From an uncultured Planctomycetota bacterium (GTDB lineage: Bacteria > Planctomycetota > Phycisphaerae > Sedimentisphaerales > Anaerobacaceae): 64,000 nucleotides of DNA. Within the stretch, counting starts at the first letter, position 1, and each line of letters opens with the position of its first letter. Shown piece by piece: positions 5,455-59,081 of the stretch. The notes under the pieces are model-generated. The model was not told where the DNA came from, did not search any database, and saw only the letters and a program-made list of their open reading frames with translations. The stretch lies in the NCBI GenBank assembly GCA_963750205.1, contig CAVVRJ010000016.1:163400-227399 (forward strand), written 5' to 3'. A program made the position numbers and the translations under genes.

Positions 5455-5563
5455 GTTCGCTGACGGATTATAGCACCAAATCCTGCCAAATGAGCAATTT
5501 CCTTAGTTTGTTCGCGTCCCGAGCATATCAGATGTTGCAATTATGTGACTTTCCGCTATAATA

Positions 5564-8276: not shown

Positions 8277-8497
8277 CCCGGTCAGTCTCCTACTCGAATT
8301 CTACGCTTGAACGCCAAGTTTCCGTTCGTCAACGACACCGGGTTTCCCGGTTCTGGCTGCGAATCTTCCCTTTCTTTTAGTAAGGCGATTCTCGACGCCT
8401 CACTGTTGATAGAGAAATGGAGCAAGCCTCAAGCAAATCCTCCAGGCGGTCGATGAAAGAGGACGCGGAGACCAAGAAGGGTTTCGATTCTTAACGA

Positions 8498-9238: not shown

Positions 9239-9457
9239 AATCACCAGCGACGCTCTTCGAACGACGGCCTTCCAAGGCAGCCCCAGGCCCAATTGGTCAG
9301 GCGGAATTCCCGACGAAGCTCTTTGAGCCAACGGGCCTGGACGTTACAATGGGCCTTTCGGCGCCGGAATCGAGGAAGCACGGTCAAACGAGTTTGGCTG
9401 TGCCACCCGTTTCGAGATGGACTGGCGCGGACGGGGTCTTGTACCACAGGATAGGAC

Positions 9458-10658: not shown

Positions 10659-10734
10659 CCATTGCGAGCGAAGCGAAGCAATCTCCCCTGCCGAGGATTG
10701 AGATTGCTTCGTCGCTGCGTCCTCGCAATGACAT
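10659..10734. repeat. ~76-nt imperfect palindromic element (family GGATTGAGATTGCTTCGTCGCTGCGTCCTCGCAATGACAT)
   Basis: ccattgcgagcgaagcgaagcaatctc ...loop... gagattgcttcgtcgctgcgtcctcgcaatgacat. Lies 16 nt after the COG1900 gene stop. The right arm recurs at 1..35 and 47666..47727. Confidence 0.65.
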
Positions 10735-26437: not shown

Positions 26438-27901
26438 TGCTTCTGCTGCTGACGATCCTGCTGCCGGCAGCCGCAGGGACGGCCTCGTATTTCATTCGCC
26501 CCCACCATTGGCGGCGTTTTCTTTGGGGGGCTGTCGCCGCGGCGCATTTCACGCTGGCCGTCACGGCGGCGCTGACGATCACCGCCCCGCCGCTGGACCA
26601 TTGGATCGGCATGGATGCGCTCAGCGCGATCTTTCTCGTGTTGACGAGTCTGCTTTTCCTGGGGGCCACCGTGTACGGGATCGGCTACGTGGCCCGCGAG
26701 CCCGTGGCCGGGCAGACGGACTCCGAAGACGGCAGCCTCTTCAAGAACGAGCCCGAATCCGTCTTCACCGGCGCCCTGCTCCTGCTGCTGGCCGCCATGA
26801 CGCTGGCCATCCTGAGCCGGCATCTGGCCCTGCAGTGGGTGGCGATCGAAGCCACGACACTGGCCAGCGCCCCGCTGATCTACTATCACCAGAACCGCCG
26901 GTCGCTGGAGGCCGCCTGGAAGTACCTGATGCTGTGCTCGGTCGGCATCGCCATCGCCCTGCTGGGGATCTTTTTCCTCCGCATGACGATCCAGGACGGT
27001 CCTCACGACCTGACCCTGACCGCCCTGCTGGAGCGGGCCGGCACGCTGAACCACAAGTGGCTCGGCACGGCCTTCATCTGCATGCTGGTCGGCTACGGCA
27101 CCAAGATGGGCTTGGCCCCGCTGCACACGTGGCTGCCCGACGCCCATAGCGAAGCGCCGTCGCCGGTCTCGGCGCTGCTCTCCGGGGCCCTGCTCAATTG
27201 CGCTTTTCTCGGTATCCTTCGCGTGCAACAGGTTTGTGCGGCGGCGGGCATGGCCTCCTTCGGCGGCGACCTGCTGATCCTGTTCGGCCTGCTGTCGATG
27301 GGACTGGCCGGCGGCGTTCATCCTCCGCCAAACCGACTACAAACGCATGCTGGCGTACTCCAGCGTGGAGCACATGGGCATTCTGGCGCTGGGTGTCGGC
27401 CTGGGCGGGCTGGGGCTCTTCGGCTCGTTCCTGCACGCGGTCAATCATTCCGTCGTCAAGGCGATGCTGTTCTTCACGGCGGGCAACATCCTGTCCCGCT
27501 TCCATACCAAGGACACGACGAAGATTCAGGGAGCGTGTGACGCCCTGCCGATTTCCGGGGCCTTGTGGATCGCGGGATTCCTGGCCGTGACGGGATCGCC
27601 TCCCTTCGGGACATTCATCAGCGAGTTTACGATCTTGCGGGCGACCCTCGACCAGGGCCGGTGGGTGATCGCCGTGCTTTACGTGCTGTTTCTGCTGCTG
27701 GCGTTCGCCGGGATGTCGGGGATCGTGCTGCGGATGGCGCTGGGCAAATCCGAGGTGAACCGGGTCCGCGAGCCGGTCACGGCGGTCCTGCCGCCCATCG
27801 TCTTGGCGGTGCTGGCGCTGCTGCTGGGCGTGTATCTGCCCGGCCCGCTGGCGGACCGGCTGCACGAGGCCGCCCAACTGCTGGGAGGGATGGCGAAATG
27901 A
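26434..27901 (+). CDS. NuoN/HyfF-like antiporter-type membrane subunit (one apparent frameshift near 27320)
   Basis: ORF 26434..27540 (WLPDAHSEAPSPVSALLSGALLNCAF) continues in ORF 27347..27901 (MLAYSSVEHMGILALG...HAVNHSVVKAMLFFTAG). Confidence 0.6.
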
Positions 27902-29414
27902 TCACACTGCCGCAACTCCATAACGGCCAGGCCCTGCCTTTGAAGGACATTCCGGAACTCGCCGTGCCGGACTTTCGCGGCCTGATTCTGGAGCGGGTCC
28001 GCCGGGGCAGGCGGATTTCGTCGCTCTTCGGCATGCCGGACGGCGACCAGATCATGATTCTGGCGGTGCTGGCCCATGACAGCCAGGGCATGCTGGAACT
28101 GTGCCGCACGCGGGTCCGCGACCGGTATCCGGCCCTGACCCCCGATGTCCCCCAGGCCCACTGGTTCGAGCGGGAAATCGCCGAGCAGTGGGGCATCGTG
28201 CCGGAGGGACACCCGTGGCTCAAGCCCATCCGGTTCCACACTTCCTATGTCCCGAATCGCGATGCGTGGAGCCGGGACAAGGCGATGCCGATCGAGCCGT
28301 GGCGTCACCAACTACTTCCGCGTCGAGGGCGAGGAGATTCACGAGGTCGCGGTCGGTCCCGTGCACGCCGGCATCATCGAGCCGGGCCATTTCCGCTTCC
28401 AATGCCACGGCGAGAACGTCCTGCACCTGGAGATCGAGCTCGGCTACCAGCACCGGGGCATCGAGCGGGCCCTGGTCGGCGGCCCCGGCCCGCGCACGAT
28501 CCACTACATGGAGACGCTGGCCGGCGACACCACGATCGGGCACGCCACGGCCTACGCTTCGATCCTGGAGGCCCTCGGCGATGTGACGCCTTCGCCGCGG
28601 GCCCAGGCGATTCGCGCCATCGCGCTGGAACTGGAGCGACTGGCGAACCACACCGGCGATCTGGGCGCTCTTGGCCGGCGACATCGGGTTTCTGCCCACC
28701 GCCTCCTACTGCGGCCGGTTGCGGGGCGATTTTCTCAATATCACCGCCCTGCTGTGCGGCAATCGCTTCGGCCGCAACCTCATCCGTCCCGGCGGCGTGC
28801 GGTTCGATCCGACGCCGCAAACCGCGGACGATCTCTTGACCCGCCTGCAGACGACCTTCGAGTCCGTGCAGAACGCCGTGGATTTGCTGTGGGAGACGCC
28901 GTCGGTCATGTCGCGATTCGACGGGACCGGGACCGTTTCCCGGCAGGATGCCGCCCGGCTCGGCCTCGTCGGACCGGCGGCCCGCGCCGCCGGCGTCGAG
29001 CGTGATGTCCGCAGCGACCTGCCCTGGGGCATCTACCAGTCGCACGAGTTGCCCTCGGTCACGCTGCAAACGGGCGATGTCGCCGCCCGGGCGTACGTGC
29101 GCTGGTTCGAGATGCAAAAGTCCGTCGAGTTCATCAGCGACGTGACCCGCGCCTTGCCGGCGGGACCCGTTTTGCAGGAGGTCCCCCCGCCGGCGCAAGA
29201 GCATCTGGCGGTCGCTCTGGTGGAAGGGTGGCGGGGAGAAATCTGCCACGTTGCCGTGACCAACGAGCACGGCCGGCTGCGGCATTACAAAGTTACGGAT
29301 CCGTCGTTCCACAACTGGTTCGGATTGGCGCTGGCCCTCCGCCGCCAGCAGATCTCCGATTTCCCGTTGTGCAACAAGAGCTTCAACCTGTCCTATTGTG
29401 GACATGATCTGTAG
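27898..29414 (+). CDS. group-4 [NiFe]-hydrogenase large-subunit-like / NuoCD-like catalytic subunit, apparently lacking the N-terminal Ni-ligating CxxC (two apparent frameshifts)
   Basis: Three colinear frames (27898.., 28145..29005, 28671..29414). Motifs: GPVHAGIIEPGHFRFQCHGENVLHLEIELGYQHRGIE (GPxHP...GYxHRGxEK). Where HycE/EchE have ERxCGxCxxAHSTAY this protein has ETLAGDTTIGHATAY. The C-terminus FPLCNKSFNLSYCGHDL does not match DPCxxCxxR. Confidence 0.6.
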
Positions 29415-30868: not shown

Positions 30869-31048
30869 AGCCCGGCCCTTTCAGGAGCCCGTCTGTCTCA
30901 TCGTCGTTATCTGGGTGGCCGCCAAGCCGGAAGGTCTTGGCGATGGCCTCTGCTTCGTGGCGACGGCGTCGGCCCTTGCGTCGCGAGGCCATCTTGGCCT
31001 CGCCTTATCCGCCTGTGGCATGTTTACCGCCCGAACAGCAAGGGCCAG

Positions 31049-31084
31049 GGTCCCCAAACGCAATCAGTTCGCGTTTGGGAACCC
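31049..31084. repeat. palindromic REP-like element, family CCCAAACGCG-N6-8-CGCGTTTGGG (copy 1, intergenic between convergent genes)
   Basis: ggtccccaaacgcaatcagttcgcgtttgggaaccc forms a perfect 9-bp stem. Confidence 0.7.
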
Positions 31085-32984: not shown

Positions 32985-33587
32985 TCAGCCTTGGCCGGCA
33001 TCGACCGTGAGGACCGAGCCCGACACATCGACGATCCGCACGGCATGCCCTTTGCACGCCGTGTTCGGGCCTTGCAGGCGCGCCGGGTACGTGCGGTATT
33101 CGCCCCCGACACTGACGCCGATCTCGCCGACGCTGTCCCGATTGATCGGCACGGTCACGGTGCCCGTGCAGCCAAGGAGAGCGTCGGCGGCAATGACGGA
33201 GTTGGCCTGTTGCTCGGTGAACAACAGGATAATACCGTACATGAGGGTGGCCAGCACGATGCCGGCCGCCACGCCGATGAGGGAAGCGAGGGGGTAGCCG
33301 GTGCCGTAGAACTGCGCGATGGCTCCCGCCGCTCCGAATCCCATGATGAAGGTGAAAATCACCTTCGTCGAGAAAATGCCGACGATCCCATGCGTGTCCG
33401 GACCGGCCTCATGGCTGAAGTCGTGGTCGAAATCGCCGCCGAGATCGTGGTCATGGCCGAACAGGAACGCCCCGGCTATCACGATGAACGCCGCCAGTGC
33501 TATCGCCACAAAGATAGTCATAGCCGTCTCCTTTCGTAGCACGGGTACGAGATCCCCAGCGCGACCTATCGCGTTTGGGAACTCCAT
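32985..33587 (-). CDS. NfeD-like (YqiJ-like) membrane protein
   Basis: Likely start MTIFVAIALAAFIVIAG near 33521. TM helices plus a C-terminal OB-fold (GTVTVPINRDSVGEIGVSVGGEYRTYPA...AVRIVDVSGSVLTVD). Lies immediately upstream of the flotillin gene. Confidence 0.65.
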   Translation of the reverse strand: MEFPNAIGRAGDLVPVLRKETAMTIFVAIALAAFIVIAGAFLFGHDHDLGGDFDHDFSHEAGPDTHGIVGIFSTKVIFTFIMGFGAAGAIAQFYGTGYPLASLIGVAAGIVLATLMYGIILLFTEQQANSVIAADALLGCTGTVTVPINRDSVGEIGVSVGGEYRTYPARLQGPNTACKGHAVRIVDVSGSVLTVDAGQG

Positions 33588-37914: not shown

Positions 37915-39506
37915 GAACCGTGCCTGGACATGGTAAAGGGACAGATTGCATGACAAGATGCAGGATCGCATTATTCGTGGGACTCGTTCTAACGGGCGTC
38001 CGTCCCGGCGCATCGAAGTCCTTGTCACCGAGCGATTACTTCGCCATCGAGGTGGTGGACGAGCAGACCGGCCGGGGCGTCCCGATGGTAGAGCTGCAGA
38101 CGACCAGCAGCGTCCGCTACTACACCGACTCGAATGGCTTGATCGCGTTTGACGAGCCGGGACTGATGGACAAGAAAGTCTGGTTCGGCGTCTCCGCCCA
38201 CGGCTATGAATTCCCGCCGGACGGCTTCGGCATCCGCGGCGTCAGCCTCCAGACCACACCCGGCGCCGGTGCCAAGCTCAAGATCAAACGCCTCAACATC
38301 GCCGAGCGGCTCTACCGCATCACGGGCCAGGGAATCTACCGCAACACGGTCCTGCTCGGCCGCAAGCCGCCCATTGCGGAGCCACTCCTCAATGCCCAAG
38401 TGACCGGCCAAGACGGCATCTTGACCGCGATCTATCGCGGCAAGCTCTATTGGCTCTATGGCGACACGAACCGACTATCTTATGCCCTGGGCGGTTTCGC
38501 CATGACCGGGGCCACGACCGAACTACCCGAGAAGATCGACCCGTCCATCGGGATCGATCTGCGGTACTTCATCGGCCCCGATGGTTTCGCCCGGCCGATG
38601 GCTCCCATGAAAGGTGAGGGTGTAGTCTGGTTGGCGGGCCTGGTCGTTCTGCCCGACGAATCGGGCCGGGAGCGCATGCTGGCTTGGTTCCAGAGACGCC
38701 AAGGCTTGGGAGCTGTTCTCGAGAACAGCTTCGTCGTCTACAATGACGAGAAGGACATGTTCGAAAAGCTCAAGGTGGTGGACGTGGACCCGCCGCTCGT
38801 GCCCACCGGCTACCCTTTCCGTGCTAAGCAGGAGGACGGAGCCGAGTACATCTACTTCACCGCCCCCTATCCGGCGCTCCGCGTCAAGGCCGAATGGAAG
38901 TCCTACCTCGACCTCTCCTCGTACGAAGGCTACACCTGCCTGGCCCCGGGCACACGCTACGGCGGCAAGGATAAGGTCCAGCTCGACCGCGACGCCGCCG
39001 GCAAGCTCAGGTGGGCGTGGAAGAAGGGCACGCCCCCCCTGAGCGCCAAGGACCAGGAGGAGTTGGTCGACGCCGGCAAGATGGAACACACGGAATCGCC
39101 GCTGCGTCTGCAAGACGCCGAGAACGGCAAGAGGATCGTGCTCAGCAACTGCTCCTGCTTCTGGAACGACTATCGCCGGCAGTACATCATGATCGCCTCA
39201 GAGGTCCTCGGCGCTACTGTGCTCGGGGAGGTCTGGTACAGCGAAGCCGACCGGCCCGAAGGCCCGTGGGTCCAGGCGCACAAGATCATCACCCACGCCA
39301 ACAAAAAAGGCGACGCCCACGACTTCTACAACCCGACCCAACACCCTTTCTTCGATCAGGCCCGCGGCCGCGTGATCTACCTCGAAGGCTCTTACGTCAA
39401 CACCTTTTCCAGCAACCCGCACCCGACCCCCTACTACGAATACAACCAGATCATGTACCGCCTCGACCTCGCCGACCCGCGGCTGAAGTTTGTAGTGACG
39501 CCGTAA
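37866..39506 (+). CDS. hypothetical secreted protein
   Basis: Likely start MTRCRIALFVGLVLTGVRPG (signal peptide) near 37947. A 500-aa protein with diverse composition and no family recognised. Confidence 0.45.
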   Translation: MERIERGGVRGVGPELRTVPGHGKGTDCMTRCRIALFVGLVLTGVRPGASKSLSPSDYFAIEVVDEQTGRGVPMVELQTTSSVRYYTDSNGLIAFDEPGLMDKKVWFGVSAHGYEFPPDGFGIRGVSLQTTPGAGAKLKIKRLNIAERLYRITGQGIYRNTVLLGRKPPIAEPLLNAQVTGQDGILTAIYRGKLYWLYGDTNRLSYALGGFAMTGATTELPEKIDPSIGIDLRYFIGPDGFARPMAPMKGEGVVWLAGLVVLPDESGRERMLAWFQRRQGLGAVLENSFVVYNDEKDMFEKLKVVDVDPPLVPTGYPFRAKQEDGAEYIYFTAPYPALRVKAEWKSYLDLSSYEGYTCLAPGTRYGGKDKVQLDRDAAGKLRWAWKKGTPPLSAKDQEELVDAGKMEHTESPLRLQDAENGKRIVLSNCSCFWNDYRRQYIMIASEVLGATVLGEVWYSEADRPEGPWVQAHKIITHANKKGDAHDFYNPTQHPFFDQARGRVIYLEGSYVNTFSSNPHPTPYYEYNQIMYRLDLADPRLKFVVTP

Positions 39507-39531
39507 GGCGTTTCTGCGCAAGTGTCAGATT

Positions 39532-39601
39532 GGTAGGGTGTGCATCGCACACCAATAAAAGGTCCTGGTAACGAGAGGTGGTGTGCGGTGCACACCCTAC
39601 C
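39532..39601 (+). terminator. long perfect hairpin (22-bp stem GGTAGGGTGTGCATCGCACACC / GGTGTGCGGTGCACACCCTACC), candidate intrinsic terminator and repeat-family member
   Basis: Lies 26 nt after the stop of the 37866..39506 gene. It shares stem termini GTAGGGTG...CACCCTAC with the element at 50444. Confidence 0.5.
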
Positions 39602-39883
39602 ACCTGAAACTCGCTTCTATGCCCATGCAGACACACTGCTTCTCGGGTGGATGACCAAACAGCGGCAGCAAGACCGGTCCTACGCGTTTGTCGCTTTCCG
39701 GGTACCAACGGAGAGTTGGCGGGACGTAACCACAAGGACAGACGGGGTGTGGCGGCGCGAGGAACCGGGTGAGGCCCCCACGCACGCCATGTCACAACTG
39801 CCCGTCCCTGGCATCCCCTGATTCACTAATTGTTAAGTTGAGGGCGGGCCCTCTGAGTCCCCACCCGTGCCGGGGCCGCCACT

Positions 39884-41181
39884 TCATTCCCCGTTTGATT
39901 CCTTGTCTTGAAACTTCACCATGACAACCGAATGACCATTCACCAAGGTGTCGAAGTGATTCGAATATGTTCCCAGATCCGTATGCAGCCACAGATCACG
40001 TGCCGTAACCGACTGTGTCTCCGAAAGCCCGATCTCTGACCAGGTCACTGTCATTGCCAGGGTATCTTCTCCCCGGTTGAGAAATGCGACACAGTGGCTG
40101 CCATCCTCCAGCTCCTTCATCCAAATGTCCTTGTCACCATCGAGTTTGAGGCGGTGTCCTTGTTTTCCCAGGGGATCCTGATCGACCGCGATCACTTCCC
40201 GGTTAGTCAGAATCTCTTGAATCTCCGGGGACATGTTTCGAAGATCGTTTCCGGCCACTGAGGCGCGGCCAGAATCGCCCACAGGCTGAAGTGGGCCTGG
40301 TATTCTTTGATCGTCATGCCGCCGTTTCCCACCTCCAGCATATCCGGATCATTCCAGTGCCCGGGACCCGCATACTTCGCCAGGTCTTCCTGCTTGTCCA
40401 GGATCTGCAAAAATCCCAGCCCCATGGAAATAGGTGATGGGCCACCCTGTCCACCTCCAGGCGGAGGACCGCCCGCTCCTCCGGGTGGAGGTCCCTGCGG
40501 AGATCCTCCACCCCCCGCCGGCGAGCTCATTCCACCTCCTGCGTTGCTCCAGGCATCGGTAATATCCCCTGTGGTCCGCCAAAGGTTTCCGACATCCTGT
40601 GCCCAGGTCCAGGGCTCGGATAATCCCCACTCACAGATACTGAAGACAATGGGTTTTCCCGCCGCTTCCAGGGCGTCCCGCATGACGGTGTAGGATTCCT
40701 TGGCGTCCTGGCCCGCGGTGTTGCACCAGTCATATTTCAGGTAATCCACCCCCCATTCGGCGTATTGCAGGGCGTCTTGAACCTCGTAACCTTTGCTGCC
40801 GGGGCGACCCTGGCAGGTCTGCGTACCGGCATCGGAATAGAGACCGAACTTCAGACCTCTGGAATGGATATAATCAGCCAGGGCCTTCATTCCTGAGGGA
40901 AAACGATCCGGAGCGGCCATAATGCGGCCGTCCGAATCGCGACCCACCTGCCAGCAATCATCGATAACGATGTACTGGTATCCGGCGTCCTTCATGCCCG
41001 CATGGACCATGGCGTCGGTCATTTCCATGATCAGCGTCTCGTTGACGTCACAACCAAAACTGTTCCAACTGTTCCATCCCATAGGCGGCGTTCTCGCCAA
41101 TCCATTTTCCAGGGCGCTGGCCGTGGATATGGTCAGAAGTAGAAGAACGGCCATGACCGTGAATCTGCTGTTTGATATCAT
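39884..41181 (-). CDS. alpha-galactosidase, GH27 (melibiase), with Gly/Pro-rich low-complexity insertion; one apparent frameshift near 40250
   Basis: Signal peptide. Motifs GWNSWNSFGCDVNE, IVIDDCWQ, YLKYDWC, PGHWNDPDMLEVGNGGMT and the C-terminal beta-sandwich. G+C is visibly lower than surrounding genes. Confidence 0.8.
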
Positions 41182-41479
41182 CTGATAACTCCTTCTGGTA
41201 CATGGTCATAGAAATCAACGTTATCTATACTCCGATCGCAGTGAAGACCGTCGTTGGGTTTCCCAACTGCGACGCGCCGTCTTTGGGCACCCTTCTCCCC
41301 GTGTCGTGGTTTCATCATGGTCGTTTCCCTTTCAAACTGTTGGGACGATTGCCTTCTGGAGACATTCCAGCATGGCTTTCGTCAGCACATTATGCCCACG
41401 ACGGGCATTATCGAATAATGTAAAGGGTGGAACCTTAAGACAACGTGAAGGACACTGCCCGGGGGGCTTCGCAGGGCCG

Positions 41480-41560
41480 GGGGCTTCGCAGAGCCTGCCC
41501 TCAAACTGGCAATCAGCGGGAAGTGTTCCCTTGGGAATTCCGGGAGCGCCATACCTATTT
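41480..41560. repeat. diverged/partial copy R1 of the ~120-nt element (with internal duplication of GGGGGCTTCGCAG)
   Basis: gggggcttcgcagggccgggggcttcgcagagcctgccctcaaactggcaatcagcggg aligns to the 5' 70 nt of R2/R3. Lies upstream of the ABC-F gene. Confidence 0.6.
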
Positions 41561-41717
41561 CGGGAGTGAGTTTGGTGTCCGTGAATTCACAGTGGCCCGC
41601 GAGGGCCGGTCGTGGGAGGCAGGAATTGCGTTGGGGCGGCGGGCGTGGTAGGATAATAGAGGGGTATGGTCGCTGACGGAACCCTGGAATCGACATGATG
41701 CGGGATGGTTCTATACG

Positions 41718-43613
41718 ATGGCCTTGGTATCGCTGCAAGAGATCAGTATCGCCTTTGGCGGGCCCCCGCTGCTGGAGAGGGTCAATCTGCAAATCGACAA
41801 GCACCAGCGGATCGGTCTGCTGGGCCGCAACGGGACCGGCAAGTCGACGCTGATGAAGATCCTCGCCGGACAGGTCGTCCCGGATGCGGGGACCGTGCAG
41901 GCGGAAGCGGGACTGAAGATCGCGTACTTCTCGCAGACGATCCCGCAAGACCTCGAGGGCTCGGTCTTCGAGATCATCGCGCGCGGCCTGGGCCAACGCG
42001 GCGAATTGATGGTGCGCTACCATCGCGAGGAAGCGCGGCTGGCGGCGCATCGGGATCCCGACCACCGCCGGCTGCACCAGTTGCACGAACAACTGGACGC
42101 CCATCGGGCGTGGTCGGTGCTCGAAGAAATCGCGAGCATCACGACCCGCATGGGCCTGGACCCCGACGGGGATTACCCGGCCCTTTCGGGCGGTCAGAAG
42201 CGGCGGGTGCTGCTGGCGGCGGCGCTGGTGTGCGAGCCCGACCTGCTCCTGCTGGATGAGCCGACGAACCACCTGGATATCGACGCGATCGCCTGGCTGG
42301 AGAACTATCTGCTCGGGATGGGCAAGACGCTCTTGTTCGTCACGCACGACCGCCTGCTGCTGCGCCGGCTGGCCACGCGGATCATCGAGATCGACCGGGG
42401 GCAGTTGTTCGACTGGTCGTGCGACTACGACACGTTCCTCGCACGCAAGCAGGCGACGCTCGAGGCCGAGGAGAAGGAGTGGGAACGCTTCGACAAGAAG
42501 CTGGCCCAGGAAGAGGTCTGGATTCGCCAGGGCATCAAGGCCCGGCGCCACCGCAACGAAGGGCGCGTGCTCGCCCTGCAGAAGATGCGCGCCGAGCGTC
42601 AGGCCCGGCGCGAAAAGCTGGGGACCGCCCGGTTGAAGCTGGGCGACGCCCAGAGCTCGGGCGCGATGGTGCTGGAGGCCAAGGGCGTCGGCTATAGCTA
42701 TGACGACCAGCTGCTCATCCGGGATTTCGACGCGCTGGTCACGCGGGGGGACAAGATCGGCATCATCGGACCCAATGGGTGCGGCAAGACCACGCTGGTG
42801 CGGCTGCTGCTGGGCGAGCTGACGCCGCAGACGGGCACGGTCCGGCAGGGAACGCAACTGTCGATCACCTACTTCGACCAGTTGCGCCGCAAGCTCGACG
42901 AGGATAAGAGCGTCTGGGAGAACGTGCTGCCCAACGGGAGCACCGTGACCATCGACGGCAAGAGCAAGCACATCATCGGCTATCTCCAGGACTTTCTGTT
43001 CACGCCGGAGCGGGCCAAGACGCGCGTCCGCTACCTCTCCGGCGGGGAACGCAACCGACTGCTGCTGGCCCAGCTCTTCACCCAACCCGCCAACCTCCTG
43101 GTCCTCGACGAGCCGACCAACGATCTGGACAGCGAGACGCTGGAACTGCTCGAAGAGCTGCTGGTCAACTTCCCGGGGACCGTGCTGCTGATCTGCCACG
43201 ACCGGGCGTTTCTCGACAACGTCGTCACCAGCACCTGGGTCTTCACGGGCGCCGGCGCGATCGCAGAGTACGTCGGCGGCTACCAGGACTGGCGCCGGCA
43301 GCAGAGCCAGGAAGCGCCCGCGCCCGAGAAGCCCCAGGTTGACAAGAAGAAGCTCTACCAGGAAGCCCGCAAGGCCCGCCAAACGCGGAAGCTCTCGTTC
43401 AAGGAGTCCCGGGAGTTGGAGTCGTTGCCGGCGCTGATCGAGTCGCTGGAAGGCGAGCTGGCCGTCCTGCACCAACAACTGGCCGACCCGGCGTTCTATC
43501 GCCACCCCGACAACGTCATCCTCGCCACGAAGCGCCTGGCCGAGCTCGAAGCCCAACACGCCCAAGCCTTCGCGCGCTGGGAGCACCTCGAATCCATCGC
43601 CGCGGCATCCTGA
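41718..43613 (+). CDS. ABC-F family ATPase (two ABC domains, Uup/YheS-like)
   Basis: Two Walker A motifs (GRNGTGKST, GPNGCGKTT), two LSGG signatures, and an inter-domain linker. The 791-aa antisense ORF is a shadow. Confidence 0.85.
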   Translation: MALVSLQEISIAFGGPPLLERVNLQIDKHQRIGLLGRNGTGKSTLMKILAGQVVPDAGTVQAEAGLKIAYFSQTIPQDLEGSVFEIIARGLGQRGELMVRYHREEARLAAHRDPDHRRLHQLHEQLDAHRAWSVLEEIASITTRMGLDPDGDYPALSGGQKRRVLLAAALVCEPDLLLLDEPTNHLDIDAIAWLENYLLGMGKTLLFVTHDRLLLRRLATRIIEIDRGQLFDWSCDYDTFLARKQATLEAEEKEWERFDKKLAQEEVWIRQGIKARRHRNEGRVLALQKMRAERQARREKLGTARLKLGDAQSSGAMVLEAKGVGYSYDDQLLIRDFDALVTRGDKIGIIGPNGCGKTTLVRLLLGELTPQTGTVRQGTQLSITYFDQLRRKLDEDKSVWENVLPNGSTVTIDGKSKHIIGYLQDFLFTPERAKTRVRYLSGGERNRLLLAQLFTQPANLLVLDEPTNDLDSETLELLEELLVNFPGTVLLICHDRAFLDNVVTSTWVFTGAGAIAEYVGGYQDWRRQQSQEAPAPEKPQVDKKKLYQEARKARQTRKLSFKESRELESLPALIESLEGELAVLHQQLADPAFYRHPDNVILATKRLAELEAQHAQAFARWEHLESIAAAS

Positions 43614-43806
43614 GGACCCCGCGCCAATCCCGGGAAGACCAGGGCTGCACAGAACAGGACTGTCGGAAGCGTTTGGCGCTTTACGGGTGCAAGCGGGGAG
43701 AGGAGTGGGGCCCGCCCGGTGGCTCTTGCCGTCTCCAAATGGTAGCCTCGGGGACACCTCGAATATCTTCCTGCATGTGCCTCACCTTAATTTGTATCTT
43801 GAGGGC

Positions 43807-43855
43807 TGACCCTCGAAGTTCCCTCGAAGTTCCCCCTGACCCTCGAAGTTCCCCT
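43807..43855. repeat. three tandem copies of (TGA)CCCTCGAAGTTCC immediately upstream of the candidate promoter
   Basis: tgaccctcgaagttcc ctcgaagttccc cctgaccctcgaagttcccc. Confidence 0.6.
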
Positions 43856-43886
43856 TCGTCGCCTGGGGGTATTGAAGTTGTTGGGT

Positions 43887-43915
43887 TTGACAATCTCGCC
43901 GCGTGGTGTCATACT
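43887..43915 (+). promoter_or_regulatory. candidate sigma-70 promoter for the TolB-like gene
   Basis: TTGACA, then a 17-nt spacer (atctcgccgcgtggtgt), then CATACT. Lies 77 nt upstream of ATG 43992. Confidence 0.4.
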
Positions 43916-43955
43916 GATGCTTGCGCGGGCCGGTGGCGTAGCCGGTCGTTGGTAA

Positions 43956-45344
43956 ATGGAAAGTGCCGACCAGAGTCGCCGGAGGCACCCGATGCAAACT
44001 CAGACGAAGACTCTCATTTCAATCCCACTCGTTATTGCCGGCCTGCTTGTGCTCGCGCACGCTGTTGACAGCCCTTCCTCATCGACTCGTTCTGCCGACC
44101 AAAGCCCAGGCAAGGACAGCAATTCTGTTGCTGCGTTCCGCCAACGTATAACTGCCAAAGTCGAGCTGGTGAAGGAGGGTGTGCAAACATGGGCATCCAA
44201 GGGGCGCGATCCGTCGGCCATTGTGAAGACGCTTCAAGAGACGATCAAACCTCTGATCGATGCTGGTAAAGCTATCGAAGCTGAGGCTGAGTTGGATCGT
44301 CTGCTCGAACAACTAAAGCAGCCCGCGCCAGCTCCGAGTGACGGCCGGCCAGCTCGCGAGAAGTCTCTGGGCAACAAGATCAGAATAGACCCAACCGATC
44401 ATTTCAGCGTCTGGGTCTCCAAAATGGATGGCAGTGACCGAGGACTGATCCTAAGCGATCCTAAACGGCAGATCACTCACACGCGTGTATCCCCGGATCT
44501 GAAATGGATCGTTTTCACAACCTACAACAATCCTGGCAAGGACGGATTGGCAGTAGAAGGCAAGGGCTATGCGAACACCGAGATAGGTCTCTTCCAGCTT
44601 GGTGGAACTGAAACCAGAACCATCGCCGGTCCAGTGCCTGGGGAAGTCAATGCCAATGCCAGCTTTTCGTCAGATGGGAAACGTATCATCTTTGCATCCA
44701 CCCGCTCGGGCAAAGGAGCCCACCTCTATTGGTATGACGTCGAGACCGGATTGACCACCCAGGTTCCCACGCCACCTTCGCTGCATCAACTGTCGGACCC
44801 GCACGAAGTAGGGAACAAGATCGTGTTCCCCTCGAATCCAGGACCCCGCGGCGGCTTGCAGGGTATTTGGCTGATGAACCGGGATGGCTCTAACGCCCGC
44901 CAAATCACTTTTCCGCAGAAGGCCGCGGACGCTCCATCGGAGAGCATCAGCCAGGGAGACTATGATCCCCGGCTTTCCCCCGATGGCTCCCGCTTCACCA
45001 TTTTGCGGAATGTAGGCGGGGCCTTTCACGTTGTGTTGGCTGACGCGGCCTCGGGGCAGGAAAAAGACTTGACCGAGCCCCTTTTTCCCGACCGAAAGCA
45101 AACCGCGGAAGGAGTGGCCGCCTGGTCAAGTGATGGGAATTTGCTCGTCTTTCGCCATATTGCCCTGCCCCGGGAAGGCCCTCGGGGGGTCGGCATTTAC
45201 ATCATGAAACCAGATGGAAGCGGGCGAAAGAAGATCCCCATCGCGAAAGGAGAATTCCCTCACGTTCAGCCTGAGTTCTTTCCTGAGGGATCGGGTCCCG
45301 AGACTCGGGTAATTTATCAAACGGAGAAGAACCCGCTATTTTGA
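43956..45344 (+). CDS. TolB-like WD40/PD40 beta-propeller repeat protein, secreted
   Basis: Likely start MQTQTK at 43992 with RBS GGAGG at 43979. PD40 repeats (SPDGKRIIFASTRSGKGAHLYWYDVETG; SPDGSRFTIL). Lower G+C than the flanking DNA. Confidence 0.65.
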   Translation: MESADQSRRRHPMQTQTKTLISIPLVIAGLLVLAHAVDSPSSSTRSADQSPGKDSNSVAAFRQRITAKVELVKEGVQTWASKGRDPSAIVKTLQETIKPLIDAGKAIEAEAELDRLLEQLKQPAPAPSDGRPAREKSLGNKIRIDPTDHFSVWVSKMDGSDRGLILSDPKRQITHTRVSPDLKWIVFTTYNNPGKDGLAVEGKGYANTEIGLFQLGGTETRTIAGPVPGEVNANASFSSDGKRIIFASTRSGKGAHLYWYDVETGLTTQVPTPPSLHQLSDPHEVGNKIVFPSNPGPRGGLQGIWLMNRDGSNARQITFPQKAADAPSESISQGDYDPRLSPDGSRFTILRNVGGAFHVVLADAASGQEKDLTEPLFPDRKQTAEGVAAWSSDGNLLVFRHIALPREGPRGVGIYIMKPDGSGRKKIPIAKGEFPHVQPEFFPEGSGPETRVIYQTEKNPLF

Positions 45345-45364
45345 GGTGGGGATACTGGGGGGGC

Positions 45365-45487
45365 GGGCTTCGCAGGGCCTGCCCTCAAATTAGCAATTAG
45401 CGGGGAGTGTTCCTTGGTGGGGACTACGAGGATCAGCCCTCAAATCAGCGCTTAGCAGATCGAGGGGCCAAAGGGGCAGGCGCTGTA
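45365..45487. repeat. ~120-nt repeat element copy R2 (imperfect terminal inverted repeats CGCAGGGCCTGCCC / GGGCAGGCGCTG)
   Basis: Near-identical to 46282..46400 and partially to 41480..41560. Lies between the TolB-like gene and vapB. Confidence 0.8.
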
Positions 45488-45549
45488 GAATCTCTCCTCG
45501 CACACTTTCTGCGGCCTTCGCGGGATTTGCTCTTGATCCACACACCTCC

Positions 45550-45777
45550 ATGTGTTATGCTTTGTGTGGAAAGGAGCTGATTATGGCTACGAATCTGGCC
45601 CTGGACAATCGCCTGATCGAGGAAGCCCAAGCTGTGGGCGGCCACAAGACCAAGAAGGAAGCCGTCACGGCGGCCCTGAAAGAGTACGTCGCCCGGCGCG
45701 AGCAACTCGGCGTGCTGAAGCTCATCGGCAAGATCGAGTTCGATCCCGCCTACTGCTATAAGGACGCCCGGAGATGA
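45550..45777 (+). CDS. vapB: type II antitoxin, VapB family
   Basis: Likely start MATNLALDNRLIEEAQAVGGHKTKKEAVTAALKEYVARRE at 45583. Stop overlaps the vapC start (ATGATGA). Confidence 0.65.
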   Translation: MCYALCGKELIMATNLALDNRLIEEAQAVGGHKTKKEAVTAALKEYVARREQLGVLKLIGKIEFDPAYCYKDARR

Positions 45778-46180
45778 TGAGGGTCCTCATCGACACCTGC
45801 GTCTGGTCGAAGGTGCTGCGGCGCAAGCGCCGGACAAGGACCTCGCGGCCTTGATTGAGGACCTGATCCGGGAGGGGCGTGTCGTGTTGATCGGGCCGAT
45901 CCGACAGGAGCTTCTCTCCGGCGTGCCCAACGCGGCGCAGTTCGAGATTCTCCGCAAGGTGCTCGATCCCTTCGAGGAGATCTCCCTGAGAACGGAACAC
46001 TTCACGCGAGCCGCCGAATTCAGCAACCAATGCCGCCGCAAGGGTGTCCAAGGTTCAACCATCGATTTCCTGATCTGTGCCGTGGCCGCCCTCGAAGAAC
46101 TCCAGATCCTGACCACCGATTCCGACTTCCTCCGCTACGCCAAGCACCTCCCCATCAACCTCTGCGGCATCAGCACCTGA
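45774..46180 (+). CDS. vapC: PIN-domain toxin VapC (one apparent 1-nt deletion near 45835)
   Basis: MMRVLIDTCVWSKVLRRKR runs into a stop. The same PIN domain continues in ORF 45851..46180 (DLAALIEDLIREGRVVLIGPIRQELLSG...ILTTDSDF). A CCC->CC change would restore the frame. Confidence 0.6.
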
Positions 46181-46281
46181 TCTCGGGGTAGGAATTCCGC
46201 GGCTGTCTGCGGGGTCGTTGCTCAAGGCAACAGCCGTTGCAGCTTCTTATACAGCTCTGCGCCCCACCCAAGCGTGGAGCG

Positions 46282-46400
46282 GGGCTTCGCAGGGCCTGCC
46301 CTCAAATTAGCAATTAACGGGGAGTGTTCCTTGGTGGGGACTACGAGGATCAGCCTCCAAATCAGCAATTAGCAGATCGAGGGGGCAAAGGGGCAGGCGT
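46282..46400. repeat. ~120-nt repeat element copy R3
   Basis: About 95% identical to R2 over roughly 118 nt and lies immediately after vapC. Together with R2 it brackets the vapBC module as direct repeats. Confidence 0.8.
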
Positions 46401-46563
46401 TGGGCAAAGGGGATTGCCGCCCAGCCTGTCACGGCATCGTCTCCGGTCACCATGCTCCCGCCCCAAGCTTGTCCCCCCGCAGGCGGGGAGCGGTAAACCT
46501 CCCCCGCACGACCGCCGGGGGCGTGCCCGGCTTCACCGGATGCCGGCAGCCACAGGCGTTCTT

Positions 46564-46600
46564 GGGTTCCCAAACGCGATACGTCGCGTTGGGGAGACCC
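46564..46600. repeat. palindromic REP-like element, same family (copy 2)
   Basis: gggttcccaaacgcgatacgtcgcgttggggagaccc. Confidence 0.7.
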
Positions 46601-46660
46601 TCTCGTCCCTAGCGTGACTCGCTTCGTTTCCTGCCCCGATTCCCAGCAATGAATTGCTGG

Positions 46661-46696
46661 GCTATGGCCTGGGTTCCCAAACGCGAAACTCTGCGT
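46661..46696. repeat. palindromic REP-like element, same family (copy 3)
   Basis: gggttcccaaacgcgaaactctgcgtttggggtccc. Confidence 0.7.
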
Positions 46697-46942
46697 TTGG
46701 GGTCCCTCTTTCGCCCTCCGGGCTGGACTGGCTTTAGGGATGAGCATTTCTCCCGTATTTTGGGTTTTTGTATAACATACAGACATCGAGAGACGTCTAT
46801 TATAGAGTGCGGCTGCCGCTGGAGGGGGCCGCGACGATGCGCGGGGTCAGGGACTCCGCGGAGGGGACGGGAGCAAAGAAACGTCCATCGGGGAGAAGTG
46901 GCAGGTGGGAAGTTGGAAGTGTCAAGCCAAGAGGGGCTCCGA

Positions 46943-47442
46943 GGGGAACCCGGTCGGTGGTACAAACAAAGCCAATTGGAAGAGAGTTTCAAGTTGGAGG
47001 TGTCAAGTGTCAAGAGGGCAAGGCAGTGGTCCGTGGTCCGAGCTTCAAACTTCACACTCCACACGGCAAACTCGGCCGACGGCCATTCGCGCGAAACGAA
47101 GCCAATCGAGCGCCCCGACTCCGCGTTTGGTGGTTCCTCCGTCCGCCAGAAACGCCTGGCGGCGTCACTACGAACGAGGCGACCGTGCCAAACAAAGCCA
47201 ATTCCCGGCCGGGCCCGCCGTCCGCTTTGGCCGCCCGCCCCTGGGGTCGGGAGTCTGCCGCACACCAAAGATGCGAAACAAAGCCAATTTGCCGCGAGGA
47301 CGTAATGACGGCCAATCGGGAGATTGGCGGTCCCAGGAAATATGCGAAACGAACCCAATTTCCGGGGGAGGGTGCGGACTGGCCCCGGTCGGCCAAGGCG
47401 GGCAGACCCCCGCTGGGGTTGGGCGTGCGAAACAAAGCCAAT
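46943..47442. repeat. array of six ~19-nt direct repeats (consensus rTGCGAAACAAAGCCAATTy) with irregular 50-110-nt spacers, in a 1.1-kb ORF-free region
   Basis: Copies at 46943, 47091, 47186, 47272, 47343 and 47425. Each spacer contains its own short hairpin (for example CGCCAGaaacgcCTGGCG, GCCAATCgggaGATTGGC). The overlapping multi-frame ORFs here are Arg/Gly-rich shadows. Confidence 0.7.
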
Positions 47443-47665
47443 TCAGGAGGAGTCTCAAGTGGAAAGTGTCGAGTTTGAAGTGCGGCGTTTGAAGCCGGAG
47501 GGCTTGCCGGCGGTTCTGCTTGCTTGACCCTTGAAACTCCAAACTTGACACTTCGCGCAAACGTATGGTTCTGCGAACGAGCTTGCCAACCTTGCGTTCC
47601 GCCGGTATAGTTCTGCCCACGTGCAGGATGCATTGTGAGCGAACCCAAGCGATCTCTCATCCGGT

Positions 47666-47727
47666 GGATTGAGATTGCTTCCCCTGCCTTCGCAGGGGCA
47701 GGCGTTGCGCGGTCCTCGCAATGACAT
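47666..47727. repeat. variant copy of the GATTGAGATTGCTTC...CCTCGCAATGACAT element with an internal CCCCTGCCttcgCAGGGGCAGG palindrome
   Basis: Lies 48 nt upstream of ettA. A further copy is truncated by the window start at 1..35. Confidence 0.6.
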
Positions 47728-47774
47728 GCGGGGCGTTTGTCTCGTTGGCTCTGATCCGATGATGGGGATTCTGC

Positions 47775-49487
<1,713 letters not shown>

Positions 49488-56075: not shown

Positions 56076-59000
56076 ATGATGAGCCGATCGATCAAGAGTC
56101 TGATGGGCGTTCTCGTCGTACTGCTGGCGGCGCACAGCTGCCCGGGCAGAGCTGAAACTGGTAGCGAATTTCGATGGCATGACGGGCAATCCGGACGGCC
56201 AGGCCTGCAACGGCGTCCTGGGCGGTACCTTGGATACCGAGAGCGAAGCCACCGGCAACGCCTCCCTCCCCACGCAGGATGGAAGCGTCACCCTGAGTGT
56301 CATTGGTCATAGCTCCGGCACCCTGGCCCGCGCCATCGGGTTCAACGGCATCACCAACCCGATCGATAAGGGCGAGACGGGCATCGGGTTCTTCCGGTTC
56401 ATGATGCCTACGGGCGGCACGGTGCGTTCCCACATGGGCTTGATCGCCGATGCGACGACCAATCCCATCAACAGCACGAACACCGCGGACCCGAAGACGG
56501 TGGCGGCGGGATTCCGTCTTGTGGATAACGGGACTGGGTACGACCTGCTGACCACGGATGGCGCGACCACCCTTACTACCGGTTTGGCCCGCAGCCAATG
56601 GTACAACGTCTGGATCGTGGCGGACCATGCGGCCAAGACGTTCGACCTGTATGTCAGCAAGGCGGCGGGACCGGCGGGCGCGCCCACGCTGCCCACTGCG
56701 GCGGACCTTGTGAAAGGTGGCATACCGTTCGCAACGGCGGCGACAGGCTCCCTGAACGGCATGATCTTTGCCTGTCCCATCAGTCCCACGGGGTCCGGCC
56801 AAGCCACCCGCATCTACGTCGATGAAATCTGGTGGGATGGAGATCAGGGGCTGTCCAAACCGACCACGGCCAAAAATCCCGGTCCCGGCGACAAAACGCA
56901 GGACGTGGCCCAGGACGTGGTCTTAAGCTGGACACCAGGACTGACGGGGGCCAAGCATGACGTGTATTTCGGGGCTTCCCTGGACGACGTCAGCAACGCC
57001 GACAGAACCAAGCCGCTGGCCGTTTTGGCCGGTCAGGCCCAGGACGCCAACACGTTCGATCCGGCCGGCCTACTCGCGTTCGGCCAGACCTATTACTGGC
57101 GCGTCGACGAAGTCAACGCCGCGCCGAGCACCACGATTTTCAAGGGCAACGTCTGGTCCTTCACCGTCGAGCCGTATGCCTATCCGATCCAGAAGGTCAC
57201 GGCCACCGCGTCGAGCGCCAGCTGATGGAATGGGACCGGAGAAGACCATCGATGGCTCGGGTCTGAACGCCAGCGATCAGCATGCGACGGATCCGACGCA
57301 GATGTGGCTCAGCGCCACGGTGCGGCGCAGCCGGCGTGGATTCAGTACCAGTTTGACGCCAGTCTATAAGCTCGATCGACCTGCTGGTCTGGAATTCCAA
57401 CCAGTTGCTGGAGTCGGTCCTCGGCTTCGGGGCCAAGAGCGTGACGGTGGAGTACTCCACCGATGCCGCCACCTGGACGAAGCTGGGCGATTTTGAGTTT
57501 GCCCGGGCCTACAGGTGCCGCGACTTACACAGCCAACACCACGGTGGATTTCGCCGGCGCCAGTCGCCAAGTACGTCCGGCTGACGATCAACAGCAACTG
57601 GGGCGGCGTGCTGGCCCAATACGGCTTGAGCGAGGTGCGGTTCTACTATATTCCGGTTCTGCCGCGGGCGCCGCTCCCGGCGGTCGGCCCAGACGGGCGT
57701 CGCCCTCGATACCATGCTGAGCTGGCGGCCCGGTCGGGAGGCGGCCTCGCATCAGGTCTACTTCAGCACCGACAAGCAGGCGGTGGCCAATGGCACAGCC
57801 CCGCGTCAAGACGGTCAGCAGCGATAGCTTCAATCCCGGCCCGCTGAACCTGGGAACCACCTACTACTGGAAAGTCGCCGAGGTCAACAACGCCAAGACG
57901 CCCAACACCTGGACCGGCGACGTCTGGAGCTTCACCACGAAGGAATACCTCGTCGTGGAGGACTTCGAGAGCTATAACGACGATGACAACCGCATCTACG
58001 ACACCTGGATCGACGGCTACGAGCGACAGGCAGCAGCGGCTCGGCCGTCGGCTACCTGGCGGCCCCGTTCGCCGAGCAGAAGATCGTCCACGGCGGCAAA
58101 CAGTCGATGCCGTTGGAATACAACAACGTCAAGACGCCCTATCTACAGCGAAGCCAGCACGGACTTCACCCCCGTCCAGAACTGGACCGTGGATGGGGCC
58201 GACACGCTCTCGCTGTACGTGCACGGCCAGCCGGTCGGCTTCACGGAGACCTCTGGGGGTCATATGGTGATGAGCGGCACGGGCACGGACATCTACAACA
58301 CGGCGGACCAGGGCCGGTTCGTCTACAAGCAGCTTACCGGCGACGGCACGATCATCGCCCAGGTCGATAATCTCACCAACACCAACGCCTGGGCCAAAGC
58401 CGGCGTCATGATCCGCCAGAGCCTGGACGCGGGCTCGTCCTGGGCCTATTCGCTGGCCAGCACCGGCAACGGCGTGCACTTCCAGGCCCGGCTGCTCGCC
58501 GCTGGGGCCGCCACGAGCGACACGACCCTGACGCTGCCGACCTCGCAGACCACCGCTCCCGATCCCGGTGTGGGTCAAGCTCGAACGCAAGGGCAATCAG
58601 TTCAACGCCTACTACTCGACCGACGGGACTACTTGGACGCCGAATCCGTGGAACCCGCAGACGATTACGATGGGCGCCAACGTCTACATCGGCTTGGCCG
58701 TGACCAGTCACCAGTCCGGAGCGGTGACCGCAGGCGGAGTTCTCCTCCGTCGCCACCACAGGCACCGTCACCGGCGCCTGGCAGTCGGTCTCGCTGGGCA
58801 TTGCACAGCCCGCCGGCAACACGCCGGATACGCTCTATATCGCCGTACAGGACAGCAGCGGTCACAAGGCCACGGTGACCTATCCCGATTCGTCTATTCT
58901 CACGACGGACGATTGGACGCAGTGGAGCATTCCGCTGAGCAAGTTCACCGCGGCGGGCGTCAAGACCAGCAGCATCAAGAAGCTGAGCATCGGTATTGGC

Positions 59001-59081
59001 GACAAGACGAAATCCGCTCCAGGCGGCGCCGGCCTGATCTTCATCGACGACATCGCCTTCGGCCATCCGGCGGGGCAGTAA
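56076..59081 (+). pseudogene. large secreted multidomain protein (repeated beta-sandwich modules, discoidin-like and ConA/LamG-like domains), >=5 apparent frameshifts
   Basis: Signal peptide MMSRSIKSLMGVLVVLLAAHS. The module G(Q)TYYWRV/KV(D/A)EVNxA...VWSFT(V/T) occurs 3 times. F5/8-type-C-like segment NWGGVLAQYGLSEVRFYY. Lectin-like segment RFVYKQLTGDGTIIAQVDNLTNTNAWAKAGVMIRQSL. Fragments 56179..57225, 57790..58878 and 58568..59134. Confidence 0.4.

Follow-up and report, generated by a model that had tools for sequence, protein, structure and literature searches.

The DNA analysed here ("the window", 64,000 nucleotides (nt) of contig CAVVRJ010000016.1) belongs to an uncultured Planctomycetota bacterium of the class Phycisphaerae. 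At 39.8-46.4 kb it carries a GH27 alpha-galactosidase gene, the ABC-F ATPase gene uup, a gene for a secreted PD40/TolB-like beta-propeller protein and a vapBC toxin-antitoxin module, punctuated by five copies of a short non-coding repeat designated R-a, R1, R-b, R2 and R3. The gene identities had been proposed from the letters alone in a first-pass annotation (GH27, ABC-F, TolB-like propeller and vapBC), and all of them were confirmed by Pfam. From left to right the order is R-a (leftward), GH27 (leftward), R1 (rightward), uup (rightward), R-b (leftward), PD40 (rightward), R2 (rightward), vapBC (rightward), the remnant of an exonuclease gene (leftward) and R3 (rightward). For a repeat, the direction is that from its GGGG end to its TTAG end, for a gene that of transcription. 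Every junction zone has a copy of a 37-38-nt unit common to all repeats. The coordinates are compiled in Table 1.

Table 1. Repeat copies, genes and other features of the window (GC3, GC content at third codon positions)
Feature	Position	Strand	GC3	Remarks
R-a	39826..39862	-		Diverged 38-nt core; nhmmer E=7.7e-6; 27-30 of ~40 positions match R1-R3
GH27 alpha-galactosidase	39884..41181	-	0.59-0.65	Signal peptide; Pfam Melibiase_2 and Melibiase_C split over two frames
R1	41462..41530	+		Tandem 17-nt GGGGGCTTCGCAGRGCC, core, 12-nt extension common to R2 and R3
uup-type ABC-F ATPase	41718..43613	+	0.89	Pfam; native backbone gene
R-b	43787..43857	-		Diverged core, then three tandem GGGAACTTCGAGGGTCAG-type units; weak nhmmer match, E=0.26
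Sigma-70-like promoter consensus ahead of PD40	43887..43915	+		TTGACA, 17 nt, CATACT, upstream TG; consensus match only
PD40/TolB-like beta-propeller, secreted	43956..45344	+	0.60	Pfam; start probably 43992
R2	45362..45485	+		Full 121-nt form: core, second half-unit 55 nt on, 12-nt terminal inverted repeat
vapB antitoxin	45583..45777	+	0.80	Pfam VapB_antitoxin E=4.6e-17
vapC PIN-domain toxin	45774..46180	+	0.81	PIN E=1.4e-9; frameshift near 45825-45850
RNase D-like 3'-5' exonuclease remnant	46219..46275	-		Last ~16 codons; truncated at R3's GGGG end
R3	46279..46402	+		Full 121-nt form; orthologous conservation with L010 begins at the GGGG end
Gene-free 1.37-kb stretch	46403..47774			Upstream of the EttA-type ABC-F gene; patchy conservation with L010
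EttA-type ABC-F	starts 47775		0.87	Second ABC-F gene of the region
Putative cassette unit with GH27	39826-41518			
Putative cassette unit with PD40	43787-45401			
GGGTTCCCAAACGCGA palindromes	31048-31084, 33548-33584, 41256-41287, 46563-46600, 46670-46705, 62465-62501			
Frame-split ordinary genes	81-1705, 9458-10643, 27565-29414, 56869-59069			The last encodes a large secreted protein

The GC content of the window is 62.8%, which is below the background of about 65% assumed at first, and rough gene calls yield a median GC3 of 0.78 (standard deviation 0.085). As had been noticed, the GH27 and TolB-like genes use AT-richer codons than this median, and by composition both are foreign. A single lower-GC island, however, does not exist. 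When the region is cut at the repeat copies, the GC contents of the segments are 0.557 for GH27, 0.652 for uup, 0.566 for PD40 and 0.600 for vapBC. Thus, there are two low-GC segments with the native uup between them, vapBC is nearly normal, and the GC steps fall at the repeat copies.

The shared unit was delimited by alignment of 14 copies from nine contigs. It is a core of 37-38 nt, GGGGCTTCGCAGGGCCTGCCCTCAAATTAACAATTA(A)G, whose two edges are sharp. It starts with GGGG in nine of the 14 copies and with GGG or a diverged sequence in the others; four end with TAAG, the remainder with TTAG plus one base. The 14-copy alignment yielded no conserved secondary structure (-3.1 kcal/mol, no covariation), and RNA folds of the repeats scored z values of -0.9 to -1.8 against shuffled sequences. 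Three copies of ~120 nt with terminal inverted repeats had originally been described. This holds for R2 and R3, which are 94% identical over 121 nt. Within each of them, a direct repeat recurs with a period of 55 nt, and each has a terminal inverted repeat (12 nt at 92% in R2, 8 nt and perfect in R3) that starts inside the conserved core. R1 shares only ~56 nt with them, their first part, and has no terminal inverted repeat, and the two inverted copies R-a and R-b had been overlooked.

The copies are confined to one region. When two mismatches are allowed, motif CCCTCAANTNNNNANTTAG matches seven times compared to 0.45 expected, always at 39.8-46.4 kb. With an nhmmer profile built from 12 copies, all five sites fall within 6.6 kb, and nothing significant turns up in the remaining 57 kb of the window. 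At all five, in the orientations -, +, -, + and + (R2 and R3 being co-oriented), the GGGG end faces accessory DNA. R-a and R1 point with it towards GH27, R-a from ~20 nt past the GH27 stop codon, and R-b points towards the PD40 gene. R2 begins 18 nt past the PD40 stop. On the plus strand, R1, R2 and R3 share the extension CGGGRAGTGTTCC, which is absent from copies elsewhere and suggests local amplification. None of the copies contains a promoter consensus, and a terminator or promoter role for the repeat was dropped. Rfam finds nothing in the window at gathering score, and with relaxed thresholds 39.5-47.8 kb yielded only a weak Acido-Lenti-1 match outside the repeats and a spurious microRNA match.

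Outside the window, the core is rare and sporadic. An exact-match scan of 185,579 species genomes with the 21-mer CTTCGCAGRGCCTGCCCTCAA retrieved two contigs of a Phycisphaerae metagenome-assembled genome (MAG) and a Pirellulales MAG, in which the sequence occurs in tandem. In addition, an Anaerolineae MAG matched in part, and two matches in coding sequences of Firmicutes are due to chance. Five further real contigs came from a metagenome scan with the same 21-mer. In no GTDB genome were more than three copies seen, and ~87 kb of DNA from relatives, not chosen for the repeat, contained one weak further copy (nhmmer). Between Pirellulales and Phycisphaerae MAGs the core is 95-100% identical, yet it is present in very few genomes. 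An abundant genome-wide repetitive extragenic palindromic (REP) sequence, the outcome that the first-pass annotation had named as fatal to its view, is therefore not what was found in the DNA that could be reached, the source genome lying outside the scan. R2 has no match in plasmids or phages; the consensus core has only an 18-nt chance match in plasmids. Viral contigs yielded nothing. In the literature, nothing was found on the core sequence, nor on miniature inverted-repeat transposable elements (MITEs) in Phycisphaerae.

In four loci, a truncated coding sequence adjoins the GGGG end. In the window, this is the exonuclease remnant at R3. In the other three, it is a duplicated 3' fragment of rpiB (L004), a fragment of an IS481-type transposase gene (L003) and a 5'-truncated IS110 transposase gene (L002). 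In L003, a nucleotidyltransferase fragment lies in addition ~28 nt past the other end of the core. Further neighbours of the core are an IS4-like transposase gene and a group II intron (L012) as well as HNH genes (L009, L011). The 57-nt exonuclease remnant in the window is 89% identical (blastn) to the end of a gene that is intact in L013, 1.3 kb downstream of uup. The translations end with ...GWGAELYKKLQRLLP in the remnant and ...WVGREVYQKLQLLLP in the intact gene. This remnant also modifies the view that vapBC is exactly bracketed by R2 and R3: the bracket is present, but it encloses the remnant as well. The module itself corresponds to a type II vapBC, with a vapB gene that overlaps the PIN toxin gene by 4 nt. 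In vapC, PIN profile positions 23-119 are read in one frame and the N-terminal MMRVLIDTCVW in another.

Comparison with relatives, as recommended in the first-pass annotation, revealed that the DNA around uup is variable. By its uup gene, the window belongs to Phycisphaerae/Sedimentisphaerales. The Uup protein is 87% identical to that of Anaerobaca lacustris and 93-94% identical to metagenome proteins. In the closest relatives (L013, L014, L015), the nucleotide identity of 94% is limited to 41535/41612-43625/43634, i.e. to uup and its leader, and GH27 and PD40 are missing at this locus. The homology to L014 starts at 41535, directly past R1, so that the end of R1 opposite to its GGGG end marks the beginning of homology to relatives; it stops ~20 nt beyond the uup stop codon. 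Each relative examined has different flanks around uup. Upstream, a sulfatase gene, a pectate-lyase-like gene, HNH/ParE genes or murB are found. Downstream lies a conserved gene for a 107-aa protein, absent from the window, which is preceded by variable inserts, one of them an MNT/HEPN toxin-antitoxin pair. On the right-hand side, L010 matches the EttA gene and the 1.37-kb intergenic stretch with ~84% identity up to the GGGG end of R3. This stretch, which is dense in other short repeats, is the right-hand backbone of the island. Past the point equivalent to R3, L010 has a higBA-like pair and a lipoprotein gene in place of vapBC. Its R3 counterpart is shorter and made up of one unit. The 121-nt form, and hence R2, originated in the window's own lineage.

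The uup flanks of the relatives are an insertion hot spot. In L022 (12279-15270), the MNT/HEPN pair is accompanied by two genes of unknown identity, in L016 (Anaerobaca, 8021-9466) ParE, Vsr and HNH genes precede uup, and L013 (7190-7840) has 650 nt of short repeats there. The ~110-nt uup leader (41620-41717) is conserved between the window, L013, L014 and Anaerobaca (L016). It has a 10-codon upstream open reading frame (ORF) from ATG 41666 to TGA 41698 encoding MVADGTLEST*, which may serve as a translational attenuator of the ABC-F gene.

In the preferred reading, the accessory DNA at this locus comprises three spliced-in pieces: GH27 from a lower-GC donor, a single PD40 gene with a promoter-like site and the vapBC module. 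For GH27, there is good evidence of acquisition from such a donor because its nearest relatives (74-75% nucleotide identity) reside on contigs of 52-53% GC and have a GC3 of 0.62-0.63, matching the window copy. At the protein level, the best database homologue is 74% identical when exact self-matches are excluded. Named organisms with relatives of GH27 are Steroidobacteraceae and Acidobacteriota. The best PD40 homologue, determined in the same way, is 79% identical. PD40 homologues have a patchy distribution in Verrucomicrobiales, Spirochaetota and Omnitrophica MAGs, and in one other genome a homologue closes an operon with an extracytoplasmic function (ECF) sigma factor. The closest homologues of both genes (L017-L021) lack a repeat copy, and similarity ends at the coding sequence, in the case of PD40 at the stop codon.

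GH27 contains one frameshift near 40250-40282, and the database holds an identical truncated 324-aa product (exact match) from a contig that is presumably the source; in that case, the deposited sequence itself has the frameshift. Decay of GH27 and vapC was considered as the cause of their frameshifts and rejected as unreliable. The frameshifts are probably assembly indels because other window genes, core metabolic ones included, are split alike. There are at least four of these, namely those for a carboxylesterase, HcyBio and a complex-I/hydrogenase large subunit, and the gene at 56869-59069. The catalytic domain of GH27 has a Gly/Pro-rich low-complexity insert, GGGMSSPAGGGGSPQGPPPGGAGGPPPGGGQGGP, at 40390-40540 (residues ~213-250). 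Its closest homologues are similar in length, 420-433 aa, compared to ~390 aa for most.

The best explanation, to which we attach an even chance, is that 39.8-46.4 kb is a variable locus round the conserved uup gene, which insertions and rearrangements have assembled, with copies of a non-autonomous repeat resembling a transposon end as their sites. The 38-nt unit would then represent one end of a mobile element, namely a terminal inverted repeat or a non-autonomous derivative that is acted on in trans. The data show the layout of the locus, the foreign composition of its accessory genes, breaks in gene order that fall at the repeats, truncated genes at GGGG ends and the lack of attC features. 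We infer that a transposase or recombinase binds the core and that the core caused the rearrangements instead of being a mere neighbour. A transposon end or recombinase site is proposed because the core is sharply bounded, unstructured, conserved in sequence, rare and sporadic, and because one of its ends is joined to unrelated or truncated DNA. In the proposed course of events, the GGGG tip would be joined to target DNA. Subsequently, deletions and rearrangements would occur beside the tip, at gene boundaries or within genes. Recombination between copies could then have yielded the bracket of R2, vapBC and R3.

Several points weigh against this explanation. No transposase with these ends was found in any repeat locus examined, and target-site duplications flank none of the five window copies or pairs. 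If GGGG is the outer tip, the low-GC genes are located outside the repeat pairs, and additional steps such as selection-trimmed deletions adjacent to the tip are required. Breakpoints exist without a repeat, too, ~20 nt past the uup stop and 3 nt past the exonuclease stop. As gene order is poor throughout the group, the co-location of repeats and breakpoints may in part be a coincidence. The neighbours of the core include three transposase families, HNH genes and a group II intron; they demonstrate residence in junk regions of mobile DNA, not which enzyme acts. Furthermore, the sample consists of ~15 copies that were found by exact-match seeding.

Replicative transposons are known to leave solitary ends joined to target DNA and deletions next to the tip. 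We know of no solo-end or miniature family of the Tn3 type from Planctomycetota. The inverted repeats of the Tn3 family are ~38 bp long, start with GGGG and end with TAAG (PMC5736529, PMC6920998). Similarly, the core is a 38-bp unit with sharp boundaries, a GGGG start in 9/14 copies and, in some copies, TAAG. Like solo ends or miniatures of Tn3 elements, e.g. Tn3-derived inverted-repeat miniature elements (TIMEs), it is conserved in sequence but not in structure, has a GGGG tip joined to unrelated or truncated DNA, is found alone or as inverted pairs and is scattered sporadically across distant hosts. It differs in that a 5-bp target duplication is lacking, TAAG is present in only 4/14 copies and the tip is often tandemly duplicated (17-28 nt). 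A DDE Tn3-type transposase or a resolvase was found neither in the window nor in the other repeat loci examined, where the neighbours are IS481-, IS110- and IS4-like. We regard the Tn3 resemblance of the core as a lead, not as membership.

A second explanation, which we consider unlikely, assumes that the core is a passive intergenic word of a mosaic resembling REPs or bacterial interspersed mosaic elements (BIMEs). It would have no part in gene movement, and the accessory genes would have arrived via unrelated recombination. The core might then be a 3'-untranslated-region or protein-binding element, and it would lie at junctions only since every intergenic region of these shuffled genomes is a junction. 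REP/BIME repeats are known sites of rearrangement and of insertion of insertion sequences. Like them, the core is intergenic, often situated just past stop codons and combined with other short repeat words. Four copies lie in sense orientation 13-30 nt past the stops of GH27, PD40, a gene for a metallo-beta-lactamase-fold protein (L004) and a BlaR1-like gene (L012), while a fifth (L013) lies antisense 6 nt past a stop. The intergenic DNA is rich in GGGTTCCCAAACGCGA, GAATTCCGGGGACGCC-type and Acido-Lenti-1-like hairpins. GAATTCCGGGGACGCC-type hairpins follow the core in R1, L003, L004, L008 and L012, and Acido-Lenti-1 hairpins flank it in L008, which amounts to the mosaic with other extragenic motifs by which REP/BIME elements are recognised. 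The breakpoints without a repeat also accord with a passive word. On the other hand, the core is not palindromic, has no conserved stem or other structure and is rare in the DNA examined instead of being present in hundreds of copies, and no REP-associated tyrosine transposase (RAYT) was seen. In four or five independent loci, it directly adjoins truncated coding sequences, which classical extragenic repeats do not. Its near-invariance between classes of the phylum, combined with its presence in few genomes, fits horizontal spread better than a vertically inherited housekeeping signal.

Instead of the core, palindrome GGGTTCCCAAACGCGA...TCGCGTTTGGGAACCC is the dispersed REP-like repeat of the window, with 11 half-site matches window-wide compared to 1.0 expected. 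In L008, two matches to the Acido-Lenti-1 RNA (RF01687) at gathering score (5296-5339 and 5499-5542) form part of direct repeats, 89 nt each, on both sides of the R copy. In the window, a weak match to the same family lies at 46642-46674, outside the repeats, with 26 bits compared to a gathering score of 37.

Mobilisation by MITEs had been put forward in the first-pass annotation as the alternative to integron cassettes. It comes closer to the reading preferred here, in which the repeat would derive from a mobile element. In common with MITEs, the repeats are small non-coding elements, R2 and R3 carry short terminal inverted repeats, and the extension of R1-R3 is lineage-specific. They deviate from MITEs by the missing target-site duplications and by terminal repeats that are restricted to R2 and R3, measure only 8-12 nt and leave out the conserved GGGG end. 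A more specific variant, which we judge to be quite improbable, holds that each of the genes GH27 and PD40 forms a mobile insertion cassette, a single passenger with its own promoter between ~38-bp inverted repeats, with outer tips TTAG/TAAG and a transposase encoded elsewhere. Indeed, both low-GC genes lie between inverted copies in the same relative orientation, and the bracketed units match the extent of the low-GC segments (Table 1). As in known mobile insertion cassettes, single passenger genes are bracketed without a transposase, and the PD40 unit includes the promoter-like site. However, the repeats of a pair are only ~65-70% identical (27/40 and 28/41 positions), target-site duplications are lacking here as well, and the same cassette was not seen in a second context: the closest homologues of both genes have no repeats, and their similarity ends at the coding sequence. 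Most copies in other genomes are solitary. In addition, the cut-off genes adjoin the GGGG end, which in this model is inside the unit; this points to GGGG as the true outer tip.

According to the first-pass annotation, the locus resembles integron cassettes, i.e. genes followed by attC sites. The cassette-like mosaic of accessory DNA with repeats in between is real; its interpretation as an integron is rejected. A broader form of this proposal regards the repeats as recombination sites of a cassette system, be it a chromosomal integron, a cluster of attC sites that has no integron-integrase (CALIN) or an analogous undescribed site-specific system, in which circles of gene plus repeat would be taken up at a repeat already present. 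Genes are followed by a 121-nt repeat, no promoter is evident within it, and R2 and R3 flank as 94% identical direct repeats a toxin-antitoxin module, which is typical integron cargo. Several genes are closely trailed by a sense-oriented copy, and the orthologous repeat in L010 is accompanied, on its GGGG side, by another toxin-antitoxin module. Judged by the attC/CALIN criteria of Cury et al. 2016 (PMC4889954), however, the repeats are not members: a regex search for RYYYAAC...GTTRRRY pairs (R''/R', 50-150 nt apart) found none in 39400-47900 on either strand and none in R1-R3. R/L boxes and a hairpin with extrahelical bases are missing, too. On either strand, R1, R2 and R3 fold no better than shuffled sequences (single-stranded DNA of R2 and R3: z -0.34 to -0.66). 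Orientations are mixed. The window was correctly reported to be devoid of an integrase: among ~60 ORFs that cover it, a Pfam scan detected no Phage_integrase, and hence no IntI or other tyrosine recombinase, no transposase and no Y1 transposase or RAYT domain. It contains no tRNA or tmRNA (transfer-messenger RNA) as integration target either. The bracket around vapBC includes the remnant of a neighbouring chromosomal gene, which fits rearrangement better than a clean cassette. Even the broader form is highly unlikely.

Equally doubtful is a bolder idea, namely that the core is the recognition site of an undescribed gene-capture system of Planctomycetota, whose GGGG end would be joined to incoming DNA by a recombinase or transposase encoded elsewhere. 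If this were true, fixed positions on the chromosome would serve for the exchange of single-gene units and toxin-antitoxin modules, for instance upstream of EttA, where vapBC in the window is opposed to the higBA-like pair in L010. Such a system would be a functional analogue of integrons without attC hairpins.

Under the explanation by a transposon-end-like repeat, the repeat family is previously undescribed but of a known kind of element, and the locus is a case of ordinary genome plasticity. It would add one more short repeat family, common to Phycisphaerae and Pirellulales MAGs, to the relics of mobile elements. This family would mark the exchange of glycoside hydrolases, envelope proteins and toxin-antitoxin modules in poorly studied anaerobic Planctomycetota. 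The 38-nt core can be used as a marker for variable loci and rearrangement junctions, although its practical value is modest and it has no bearing on a long-standing open question. A further lesson is that a gene with a repeat behind it does not by itself justify calling an integron cassette.

Three candidate associations of the core at other loci were rejected. An integrated island in L004, suggested by the duplicated rpiB 3' end, was discarded: the interval holds the housekeeping gene rsgA and no integrase, and was read as a rearrangement. A mobile unit that links the repeat to an HNH gene (L009, L011) was dismissed, as the two loci share the HNH gene and the repeat but little of the DNA in between, and the HNH gene of Anaerobaca lacks a repeat. 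The same applies to targeting of the repeat by the group II intron of L012: a fragment of this intron is present in L010 without an adjacent repeat, and the adjacency was taken as a coincidence. The intron lies on the minus strand of L012 at 1190-1460 (Rfam group-II-D1D4-6, 175 bits), its fragment at 3802-3997 of L010. The sequence common to both starts ~4 nt past the TTAG end of the L012 copy, while the Rfam match begins ~50 nt further in.

Three other repeats of the region were recorded. At 46961-47443, six copies of GCGAAACAAAGCCAATT are arranged on the same strand at distances of 71-130 nt, and the GC-rich or hairpin sequence behind each copy is not the same. The array (six matches compared to 0.05 expected) is found nowhere else in the window, and the word recurs in L008 and upstream of the L010 EttA gene. 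It looks like an irregular repeat-spacer array with dimensions that are not those of clustered regularly interspaced short palindromic repeats (CRISPR). Downstream of a gene for a 546-aa protein, a long hairpin GGTAGGGTGTGCATCGCACACC...GGTGTGCGGTGCACACCCTACC (39537-39597) was responsible for a spurious mir-652 match; its repeat word is also present in L009 and L013. Finally, a 51-nt repeat CATTGCGAGCGAAGCGAAGCAATCTC...GAGATTGCTTC occurs at 10660-10710 and 47631-47681 in copies that are 82% identical, and also in L002. The copy at 47631 is located just upstream of EttA.

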